A stretch of DNA of 59,795 nt from an uncultured Candidatus Saccharibacteria bacterium (GTDB taxonomy: Bacteria > Patescibacteriota > Minisyncoccia > Minisyncoccales > GWA2-38-27): contig CAYMJA010000001.1 of NCBI GenBank assembly GCA_964391095.1, forward strand, positions 1 through 59,795. Reading direction: 5' to 3'. A program made the position numbers and the translations under genes. Numbering within the stretch: position 1 is the stretch's first letter; each line of letters begins with the position of its first letter. Shown here piece after piece: positions 24,616-26,646 of the stretch. The notes under the pieces are model-generated. The model had not been told where the DNA came from. It ran no database searches and saw only the letters and a list, made by a program, of their open reading frames with translations.

Positions 24616-26646
24616 TTATATATCAAGGTTTTTTACTTTTTTGGCATAGGTCTGGATAAATCTCTTCCTTGGCAACACCTCCTCGCCCATTAAAACATCA
24701 AAAATTCTGTCTGCTTCTTGAGCGTCTTCGATTTCAATTCTTAATAAAATACGATTCTCTGGATTCATAGTGGTTTCCCATAACTCTCCGCTATTCATTT
24801 CTCCCAAGCCCTTATAGCGCTGAATAGAAGGGATACCTCTTTTTTCTTTTTTGAGGAAAGCTAAAATTTTCTCTTTCTCCTCTTCGGTATAAGCATACTC
24901 TATCTTCTTTCCTGTTTGAATTTTATAAAGAGGTGGCTGAGCAATGTAAAGATAGCCATTCTCAATTATTGGTTTAAAATAACGATAAAAAAGCGTTAAA
25001 AGAAGCGTCCGAATATGATTTCCGTCCGAGTCCGCATCTGCCATAATAACAATTTGATGGTATCTTAGCTTATCCAAGTTAAAATCTTCAACAATAGCTG
25101 TACCTAAAGCAATAATTAAAGCCCTAATTTCTTTTGAGGATAAAATTTTATCTATCCTAGCCCTCTCAACATTTAAAATCTTCCCTCGCAAAGGCAAAAT
25201 TGCCTGAAACTTTCTATCTCTGGCTTGTTTTGAACTTCCTCCAGCACTCTCCCCTTCCACGATATAAAGTTCAGATTCCTCGGGCTTTCTTGAGATACAA
25301 TCAGCTAATTTTCCCGGTAAAGCAAGTCCCTCTAAAACCCCTTTTCTTAAAACTGTCTCTCTGGCTGCTCTAGCCGCTTTTCTGGCTGTAGCAGATAAAA
25401 GACATTTTTCAATAATGGCTTTGGCGTCTTGGGGATTTCTTTCTAAAAAATCAGTTAAGTGTTCAGAAATAATTTGGTCTACCACTATTTTAGCTTCAGG
25501 ATTCCCTAATTTTGCTTTGGTCTGTCCCTCAAACTGAGGCTCCCTTATTCTGACTGAAACAATTCCAGTTAAGCCCTCCTTTATATCTGCTCCTGATAAA
25601 TTTTCATCTGATTCTTTAAGAAAATCATTTTTTCGAGCATAGTCATTAAAGGTTCGAGTTAAAGCAGTCCTAAATCCAGTTAAGTGAGTACCCCCTTCTC
25701 CAGTGTAAATATTATTAGCAAAGCTTTCTTCATAGCACTCATATTCTTGAGTATACTGAAGGGCAGCTTCAACAACTATCCCGTTTCGCTCTCCGGAGCA
25801 ATAAAAAACATTCGGGTGACGGGGAGTAGAGTTGTGAATTAAATATTTAACATAAGAAGATAGTCCGCCTTCAAAATAAAAACTATAACTTGTCTTTTCT
25901 TTTTCCTCGCCCGCAACGCTTTGCCCGCCAGACACGCTGACGCGATTCATGTGGGCTGGCGTAGCAAGGCGGGCAGGTCTTTCGTCTTTAAAGGTTATTC
26001 TAATTCCTTTAGTCAAATATGCCTGTTGGCGTAGATGACTCAAAATTCTCTTTGCATCAAACTTAATCTCTTTAAAAATTTCAGTATCTGGCTCAAAGAG
26101 AACAGTCGTTCCGGTCTGTCGACAGTGATCTACTTTTTTAACCTTTGTTTTAGCTTTCCCTTTTGAATATTCTTGACTATATCTAATTCCTCCCCGACAA
26201 ACCCCGACCTTCATATATTTAGATAAAGCACAAACAACCGAAACTCCTACTCCATGTAAACCGCCGGCTACCTGATAGGCCTTTCCTCCAAACTTTGCTC
26301 CGGCATGGAGGGTGGTCATTACTGTTTCTAAGGCTGATTTTTTTGTAACAGGATGTTTTTCTACCGGGATTCCCCTGCCATCGTCAACCGTTTTAACTCT
26401 ATTTCCTGACAGGAGAGAGACTTCGATGTTTTTTGCATAACCAGCCAGGCATTCGTCTAAAGAATTATCCACGCATTCCCAGATTAAGTGATGCAAGCCA
26501 TCAGGACCAGTTGAACCAATATACATCGCCGGACGCTTTCTAACCGGCTCCAATCCTTTTAAAACATAAATATCCTTAGCCGTGTAAGTCACGTCCTTGC
26601 TTTTAGCTCTTTTTTTTGATTTTTGGGATATTTTTTTATAAACCAT
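24616..26646 (-). CDS. gyrB: DNA gyrase subunit B with in-frame GC-rich insert
   Basis: GHKL ATPase ([15 protein letters not shown]), TOPRIM ([12 protein letters not shown]), [10 protein letters not shown]. Confidence 0.97.
25906..25978. repeat. GC-rich palindromic element (core CGCCCGCAACGCTT) in-frame in gyrB
   Basis: CTCGCCCGCAACGCTTTGCCCGCCAG...CTGGCGTAGCAAGGCGGGCAGG, encoding [22 protein letters not shown]. Confidence 0.9.

Follow-up and report, generated by a model that had tools for sequence, protein, structure and literature searches.

A probably translated, palindrome-derived insertion in the gyrB gene of an uncultured Saccharibacteria bacterium and a possible partnership of the palindrome with a small GIY-YIG nuclease

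We analyzed a 59,795-nt stretch of DNA, referred to here as the window, from an uncultured Candidatus Saccharibacteria bacterium (lineage Bacteria; Patescibacteriota; Minisyncoccia; Minisyncoccales; GWA2-38-27 in GTDB; GenBank assembly GCA_964391095.1, contig CAYMJA010000001.1, positions 1 to 59,795 of the forward strand). The gyrB gene of the window contains a GC-rich, in-frame insertion of 72 nt which, judging from sequence comparisons, is very probably translated and derived from a family of short palindromic repeats. Its site is a permissive loop on the surface of GyrB, where the GHKL ATPase domain ends.

The host gene occupies positions 24616-26646 of the minus strand and encodes 676 residues that comprise GHKL ATPase, transducer, Toprim and C-terminal domains, as assigned from the open reading frame (ORF) and from Pfam and PDB matches. 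PF02518, PF00204, PF01751 and PF00986 were all present in the best 120 of 8000 scored GyrB homologs, PDB GyrB chains matched the window GyrB with E-values down to 1e-107, and the names given to homologs pointed to Candidatus Nealsonbacteria and Parcubacteria. The GC content was 35% window-wide and reached a maximum of 72% near 25898-25987 using a 40-nt sliding window, which agrees with the original prediction of a GC-rich segment inside gyrB. In an alignment with the 120 closest GyrBs, the window protein had exactly 24 extra residues between KDER and EKEK. The ten nearest GyrBs (P0002-P0012; 86-87% identity over conserved columns) read ...ITFKDER-EKEK(I/T)SYSFYFEGG and lacked the insert. At the DNA level, the empty site of locus L004 is GACGAAAGA directly followed by GAAGAAAAA (GAC GAA AGA, then GAA GAA AAA), and the window carries 72 nt, or 24 codons, between the AGA and GAA codons. 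Based on the relatives' empty sites, the insertion spans 25906-25977 on the minus strand, between the Arg codon (AGA, 25978-25980) and the EKEK codons. The original prediction correctly placed an insertion here but gave it 73 nt and 22 residues: one boundary was off by a base and one residue was missed at each end. It also described E. coli GyrB as short in this region and, indeed, the alignment of that protein with the query was split into two pieces, 20-225 and 255-431.

The insertion folds back on itself. One outer arm of the family palindrome, 25906-25924 (plus-strand letters CTCGCCCGCAACGCTTTGC), is an exact match to the family core and was detected by nhmmer (E = 0.04). The other, 25961-25977 (plus-strand letters GTAGCAAGGCGGGCAGG), matches the consensus GTAGCGATGCGGGCRGG and pairs with the first in the folds of both strands. 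Between them, the inner 36 nt (25925-25960) have an inverted repeat of their own (CGCCAG/CTGGCG, CAC/GTG) that forms the inner helix. On each of the two strands, the segment had a minimum free energy of -36 to -37 kcal/mol (z = -2.3 and -2.6), and that of the hairpin on the mRNA strand was -35.7 kcal/mol, such that the complementary arms reported earlier are well supported. No blastn relative of the inner 36 nt was found in about 250 loci; by eye, 21 of 35 positions match the family consensus, the arms being best kept. The inner 36 nt may thus represent a decayed second copy nested at the center of the first. Copies nested at the center of other copies occur in L020, L147, L148, L166, L189 and L212. 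The gyrB element is not the intact repeat it was first taken for: the copy has diverged and holds 36 additional bases at its center.

An origin of the GC-rich stretch in metagenome assembly, as an error or chimera, has a next to negligible probability. The source is metagenome-assembled and palindromes can confuse assemblers, but a second assembly record (L252) contains an identical gyrB (2031/2031 nt), which makes an assembly error unlikely. Moreover, diverged versions occupy the same site in contigs of other projects, and the reading frame is preserved.

The 36-nt family consensus, CCYGCCCGCAACGCTTCGCGTAGCGATGCGGGCGGG, folds into a stem of 15 bp that contains a conserved A.A mismatch (T.T when read on the opposite strand). 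Some copies are of a long form that has an additional 16-18-nt inner hairpin, AAGCGAGCTTGCTCGC. The family core, CGCCCGCAACGCTTYGC, was matched five times in the window with up to three mismatches, versus 0.03 matches expected by chance. These matches, at 18720, 18751, 25908, 45328 and 45343, correspond to both arms of the copies at 18718-18769 and 45326-45361, plus one arm of the gyrB element. Using the family profile, nhmmer detected copies in rpsD (E = 3e-11) and miaA (E = 1.5e-6) as well as the left gyrB arm, whose weak score reflects the splitting of the copy by 36 extra bases and its divergence. Together, the core and profile matches uphold the assignment of the gyrB element to this family.

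To what extent copies lie within genes was evaluated by running the nhmmer family model on 42 AT-rich contigs (415 kb). Of the 47 copies located away from contig ends, 19 were in ORFs that continued for 50 or more codons to either side of the copy. Most of the host proteins have essential housekeeping functions; they are ribosomal proteins S4, S9 and S11, RpoA, GyrB, PheT, ArgRS (two copies), a class I aminoacyl-tRNA synthetase, GatB, MiaA (two sites), RadA, PriA, a UvrD/PcrA-like helicase, PolX and ThpR. In one Saccharibacteria ribosomal-protein/rpoA operon (L016, 1072-4960), nhmmer detected four copies in 8 kb, three of them in frame in S9, RpoA (in the linker before the C-terminal domain) and S11.

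The reading frames of these copies argue for translation. The 36-nt unit has six readings (two orientations in three phases), of which five are open: PARNASRSDAGG, PARIATRSVAGG, PPATLRVAMRAG, PPASLREALRAG and RPHRYAKRCGR. All 15 short-form copies inside genes used the PARNASRSDAGG or PARIATRSVAGG reading, both in one phase and summarized by the peptide PAR(N/I)A(S/T)RS(D/V)AGG. Were the five open readings equally tolerated, the chance of this outcome would be 0.4^15, or about 1e-6. Insertion is blind to codon phase; the use of a single phase in 15/15 copies thus indicates selection on the encoded peptide, and hence a translated insert. Consistent with this, insert lengths were all multiples of 3, the 52-nt long form was always accompanied by two further bases that restored the frame, and no frame-breaking copy was recognized among the copies inside genes.

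The original prediction had left two options, a tolerated surface loop or post-transcriptional removal. In the latter, an intron-like hairpin would be excised from the mRNA and the ends rejoined, yielding a protein that lacks the 24 residues. The mRNA-strand hairpin is strong enough to invite this explanation, and the family also occurs in RNA-gene contexts, namely the variable loop of one tRNA-Glu and tRNA fragments. Nevertheless, excision would impose neither a single reading frame on the short copies nor lengths that are multiples of 3. Similarly, the decay of the stems lacked the expected imprint: in 11 copies inside genes, transition mismatches on the sense strand comprised 13 G.U and 9 A.C, and this absence of a sense-strand bias argues that the mRNA hairpin is not being preserved. 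Rfam families, including introns and ribozymes, had no match in the window at the gathering threshold and none at E ≤ 1 over 25700-26200; nor did any match fall on the palindrome in L244, L078, L020, L010 and L049. We know of no bacterial enzyme that ligates mRNA after excision of a hairpin. Overall, we judge removal from the RNA to be very unlikely. A group I or II intron was rejected specifically as there was no Rfam covariance-model match, and an intein was rejected because the insert has 24 residues versus at least about 130 for a splicing domain with Hint motifs. A true intein domain (PF14890) does occur in one GyrB relative, the 1089-residue P0012.

The same stem data bear on a regulatory role, whereby the hairpin would slow ribosomes at the GHKL-transducer boundary or serve as a gyrase or nuclease site on the DNA. 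Both the location at a domain boundary and the stability of the hairpin on the two strands fit such a role. However, close relatives do without the element, copies inside genes gain unpaired transitions on both strands, and the positions of copies in other host proteins, which include N-terminal tails and linkers, share no logic. We therefore regard a regulatory structure as very unlikely.

In the structural comparisons, the best PDB matches were mycobacterial GyrBs (3ZKB, 3ZM7, 6GAU and 8S7K). These aligned straight through the insert because they have a long insert of their own at the same position (DER...F.Y.GG). This mycobacterial C-loop comprises 32 residues (GyrB residues 214-245), is disordered in 3ZKB, and has been proposed to modulate the enzyme's open state (PMC11154950). 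An AlphaFold2 model of the window GyrB, a check that the original prediction had suggested, was generated from 55 sequences and had a mean predicted local distance difference test (pLDDT) score of 67. The insert came out disordered: it was placed between strands 215-221 and 252-258, and residues 227-249 had pLDDT values below 50 and no secondary structure. This predicted disorder, combined with the presence of the C-loop at the same position, marks the site as a permissive surface loop. The window insert and the Corynebacteriales C-loop are alike in being mostly disordered loops of comparable size that occupy the same point in the GHKL domain; the C-loop demonstrates that gyrase can function with an insert there. 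They differ in that the C-loop is conserved order-wide and has a proposed function, whereas the window insert is lineage-specific and repeat-derived, and has no sequence relationship to the C-loop.

We also inspected the corresponding site in other lineages. Two other GyrBs have a family member after the same AGA codon: those of L001 (P0019; CCTGCCCGCATTGGCTACGCCGAAAGCGTTGCAGGCGGA...) and L003 (P0013; CCTGCCCCCAGTGCTTCGCCCAGCGATGCAGACGGG...). At two diagnostic asymmetric positions, the L003 copy is oriented opposite to those of the window and L001. The three insert-bearing GyrBs share just 78-82% identity with each other, and the nearest neighbors of each (86-89%) have an empty site. To account for these empty-site neighbors, one codon boundary must have received two or more independent insertions, or the insert must have been lost precisely and repeatedly. 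Unrelated inserts of 12-40 residues were found at the same loop in P0020, P0030, P0032, P0093 and P0120. These inserts make the GHKL loop of GyrB an insertion hotspot. A second case of site reuse was observed in ThpR, in L185 and L198.

A loop that arose as a repeat insertion could since have been exapted, being now kept for altering gyrase behavior as is the Corynebacteriales C-loop. The position is the same as that of the C-loop, which in M. tuberculosis modulates both the open state and the ATPase; several lineages have repeatedly acquired insertions in this loop; and the divergence of the gyrB copy from the consensus indicates that it did not arise very recently. Nevertheless, the alignment of GyrBs that had been proposed as a check revealed a patchy segment, missing from the nearest relatives. 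The inserts differ among lineages, resembling the repeat family rather than one another as proteins. In addition, the model assigned no structure to the insert, and the same element occurs in more than a dozen unrelated proteins. We consider exaptation unlikely. A tolerated surface loop is well supported: the insert is in frame, absent in the closest relatives, located between two beta-strands at the C-loop position and modelled as disordered, and family copies inside genes have a preferred frame for which translation alone can account. Removal from the RNA is disfavored by the lack of recognized frame-breaking copies, the symmetric decay of the stems, and the lack of Rfam introns or ribozymes.

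Besides the gyrB element, the window contains three more copies, all in frame. The best preserved is exactly 36 nt long (45326-45361, minus strand) and encodes PTRIASRSVAGG in rpsD, the gene for S4; exactly these 12 residues are lacking in the S4 relatives P0242, P0243 and P0245 (73-81% identity). A long-form copy of 52 nt (18718-18769, plus strand) makes up, with 2 further nt, a 54-nt insert in miaA that encodes (T)SPPATLRKRACSRSDADG. Opposite this insert, the MiaA proteins of L001, L002, L003 and L004 have an 18-residue gap. Finally, a GC-island scan and folding identified a diverged, GC-rich palindrome of 42 nt (27353-27394, minus strand) that contributes 14 residues to pheT. It is missing from the L004 PheT, and L001 has, at the same site, a 33-nt version that has eroded toward AT while keeping the reading frame. 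We infer that the pheT palindrome is probably an old family member, although it falls below the nhmmer threshold. Another GC island, 6105-6152, was rejected as a copy: it encodes a conserved DnaE motif (...GVARHASTHACGIVIS...) and forms no hairpin (z = +0.8). The GC-island scan recovered the family; a repeat search of the whole window was dominated by AT-rich chance repeats and missed it.

The family extends well beyond Patescibacteria. In a scan of one genome per species using a 16-mer, most matches in GC-rich genomes were due to chance and only the AT-rich loci were informative. The full palindrome was found in AT-rich metagenome-assembled genomes titled Moraniibacteriota, Parcubacteria, Kuenenbacteria, Saccharibacteria, Giovannonibacteria and Daviesbacteria, and also in those titled Verrucomicrobiota, Gammaproteobacteria and Bdellovibrionales. 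Scanning metagenomes with a pattern of 30 bases gave at least 120 loci; among the matches listed, about 90 of 123 exact copies were in repeat-rich intergenic DNA of contigs with 50-65% GC. An assignment of the family to Patescibacteria alone is not borne out by these occurrences. From one phylum to another, the palindrome keeps its sequence, mismatch included. Only 2 viral contigs contained the palindrome, which gives no support to a phage vector. The possibility that the element targets functional tRNAs was also rejected: excision restored a tRNA in 1 of the 123 copies listed. This copy, in L145, yields a complete tRNA-Glu upon excision, with a junction after about tRNA position 41-46, around the variable loop. 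An extra arm in the variable loop of a tRNA is structurally tolerated. ARAGORN did not detect the tRNA fragments.

In many metagenome loci, a GIY-YIG ORF ends 0-45 nt before the palindrome. This stand-alone ORF of about 80 codons (78-81 residues) is covered almost from end to end by a match to the GIY-YIG catalytic domain, PF01541 (E = 1e-11 to 6e-18). Its other Pfam matches are weaker, overlap the first and belong to the GIY-YIG superfamily (T5orf172, MUG113, SegE_GIY-YIG). Pfam revealed no separate DNA-binding domain in these proteins, and no NCBIfam model scored above its cut-off. The two are tightly linked: DNA anchored on the palindrome, 693 kb in total, contained 16 GIY-family ORFs, of which 15 lay 0-45 nt from a palindrome. 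The association was also evident in loci sampled by protein homology alone (P0131, P0155, P0191, P0158 and P0222), all five of which contained, in this order, smpB, the GIY-YIG gene, the palindrome and the 5′ region of transfer-messenger RNA (tmRNA). In three of the five, tmRNA was confirmed using ARAGORN or Rfam, and both orientations of the palindrome were seen.

The palindrome beside the nuclease gene is always in contact with a tRNA-like module. The layout in Patescibacteria is smpB, ORF, palindrome and tmRNA, the last bases of the palindrome overlapping the first bases of the tmRNA. In higher-GC contigs, a complete tRNA-Val is followed by the ORF, the palindrome and a 3′ part of tRNA-Val, the T-stem of which is split by the palindrome. 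In L078 and L020, the palindrome is just upstream of the ORF of about 80 codons, within a duplicated 5′ part of the following tRNA. Just after the tmRNA gene, L247 (10852-11127) and L248 (10834-11097) carry a second, different GIY-YIG gene (motif REIQIKKWRRDKKE), which is preceded by other GC-rich repeats. The tmRNA locus thus seems to collect GIY-YIG genes.

These observations led to a proposal that we put forward tentatively. The 36-nt palindrome may be the non-autonomous partner of a minimal GIY-YIG nuclease of about 80 residues, seated at tRNA and tmRNA genes, in a relationship resembling that of repetitive extragenic palindromes (REPs) with their transposase but employing another nuclease fold. 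The pair would be active, or recently so, across distant phyla. The palindrome's sequence would have evolved such that either orientation reads as the harmless PAR(N/I)A(S/T)RS(D/V)AGG, enabling it to colonize essential genes where intergenic space is nearly nil. Specifically, the palindrome would be an element that is, or formerly was, mobile. Its mobility is suggested by the empty-site neighbors, the opposite orientation of the L003 copy at the same codon boundary and the nested copies. The nuclease would cleave the donor, the target or both, and host repair would complete the insertion. This would parallel the dependence of REPs on their transposase; mobilization by the GIY-YIG nuclease is possible but doubtful. 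The gyrB segment itself very probably consists of one diverged 36-nt copy plus 36 further central bases, possibly a second, nested copy, inserted in frame into a permissive loop, kept in the RNA and translated as a disordered 24-residue loop. In the compact, AT-rich genomes of Patescibacteria, where many copies are inside essential genes, they probably survive only at tolerant loops, the 36-nt form only in the PAR(N/I)A(S/T)RS(D/V)AGG frame, and survivors decay slowly toward AT, as in the L001 pheT.

Several points weigh against this account or parts of it. The mycobacterial C-loop is functional, and a loop at this site of GyrB need not be neutral. The case for translation derives from sequence statistics. 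No copy in the window has diverged further than the one in gyrB: its arms match with E-values of 0.04 and 0.47, and its inner 36 nt are without a detectable relative. Recurrence at one gyrB codon boundary could also stem from one old insertion that was later lost, precisely, many times over. There is no GIY-YIG gene in the 60-kb window or in L001-L004. Finally, 122 unique contexts were examined for the direct repeats of 2-5 nt that a target-site duplication would leave, and at no boundary offset did these exceed expectation. GIY-YIG enzymes are DNA cutters without known strand-transfer chemistry. Insertion into hairpin loops as a general rule was not supported either: in-register complementarity of the flanks was only weakly enriched, with at least 9 of 12 pairs in 3 copies, versus 0.35 expected.

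The element was compared with known systems. Rickettsia palindromic elements (RPEs) are in-frame palindromic repeats that occur in unrelated housekeeping genes and encode folding-compatible peptides (PMC10969869). The family described here likewise inserts in frame into unrelated protein-coding genes and is carried as an extra peptide in a reduced genome. However, RPEs are about 100-150 bp long, form ten families and are restricted to Rickettsia, whereas this element has 36 nt (52-54 in the long form), an unrelated sequence and a range of several phyla, and the titles and GyrB names of its hosts here point to Patescibacteria (Nealsonbacteria-like). Further, no GIY-YIG link of RPEs is reported in the literature covered, whereas the gyrB palindrome family is linked to a GIY-YIG gene. 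The GC clusters of yeast mitochondria are optional GC-rich palindromes in an AT-rich genome, and occur in frame in var1 (PMC8811140). They resemble this family in being short GC-rich palindromes of an AT-rich genome (here, 72% vs 35% GC) that are present or absent among close relatives. GC clusters are nevertheless mitochondrial and unrelated in sequence, and have AG or TAG terminal repeats that are read as target-site duplications; here there are no terminal direct repeats, and the rpsD gene has gained exactly 36 nt. In function, RPEs and yeast GC clusters are the nearest systems, and the element is a member of neither, being excluded by size and host from the former and by terminal repeats from the latter.

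REPs are extragenic and, as a rule, limited to one species; they go together with a Y1 HUH transposase, the REP-associated tyrosine transposase (RAYT), whose gene is flanked by REPs on both sides. The likeness to REP/REPIN-RAYT systems lies in a short, dispersed, imperfect palindrome beside a single-copy gene for a small, nuclease-type enzyme outside the repeat. The differences are that the enzyme is a GIY-YIG protein and not a Y1 transposase, that the palindrome is on one side only, that the locus is a tRNA or tmRNA gene, and that copies lie inside genes. Indeed, the AT-rich contigs, with 19/47 copies in long ORFs, do not show the extragenic placement of REPs, whereas the higher-GC copies look intergenic. 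Free-standing GIY-YIG homing genes of the Seg and I-TevI type are similarly lodged next to or inside conserved genes and are surrounded by duplicated fragments of the target. Known GIY-YIG homing enzymes possess a DNA-binding domain and have about 200-250 residues. The present protein has about 80 residues and no detected DNA-binding domain, and homing would leave the solo 36-nt copies at dozens of unrelated sites unexplained. A miniature inverted-repeat transposable element was rejected since the whole element is one hairpin, without target-site duplication or an adjacent insertion sequence transposase. We found no description of the element in the literature that we searched, with incomplete coverage, by topic and by sequence string; the link between palindrome and nuclease looks new.

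Until now, in-frame selfish palindromes have been a curiosity of Rickettsia and yeast mitochondria. Here, they are found in GyrB, ribosomal proteins, RpoA and tRNA synthetases of Patescibacteria, as an element that is far smaller than an RPE and whose nucleotide sequence is kept across phyla. Such inserts inflate and confuse protein alignments and phylogenetic markers of candidate-phyla genomes. They also mark insertion-tolerant loops, including, in the drug target GyrB, one at the C-loop position. The strict use of one frame provides direct sequence evidence of selection on a repeat-encoded peptide, and the GIY-YIG link at tRNA and tmRNA loci is a testable candidate for a new mode of small-repeat mobilization.

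Additional features were noted in the window. A tandem repeat, (TTTGGGA/TTTTGGA)n, at 28261-28324 of pheT (also at 32058-32089) encodes an extra segment of 21 residues that is absent from the L001 and L004 PheT proteins; pheT thus has another type of in-frame insertion, unrelated to the palindrome. The stretches 24199-24246 and 40929-40976, both located between listed ORFs, form an inverted pair of 48 nt with 81% complementarity. By eye, each member folds into a hairpin whose arms are CCC(G/A)CCCTCTAAGC and whose loop is AT-rich, and the pair may belong to another palindromic repeat family with termini like those of the gyrB family. Directly beside tRNA-Met, a structured stretch of 80% GC (30648-30705) had no Rfam match at the gathering threshold; L004 (5382-5450) has a similar sequence followed by a tRNA-like start. 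This stretch may represent a small RNA that has escaped annotation, or else a processing element. At 1054-1138, ARAGORN predicted an 85-nt tRNA-Phe with the unusual anticodon AAA, for which the Rfam tRNA model was silent at the gathering threshold. AT-rich direct and inverted repeats of the TACTTAATAC type, apparently between ORFs, are located at 33163-33204, 57033-57117 and 59610-59691 and may be promoter or terminator modules. Finally, in L003, a Thy1 (ThyX) gene (7938-9635) was called at 565 residues, about double the usual length, which suggests a fusion or a large insertion.

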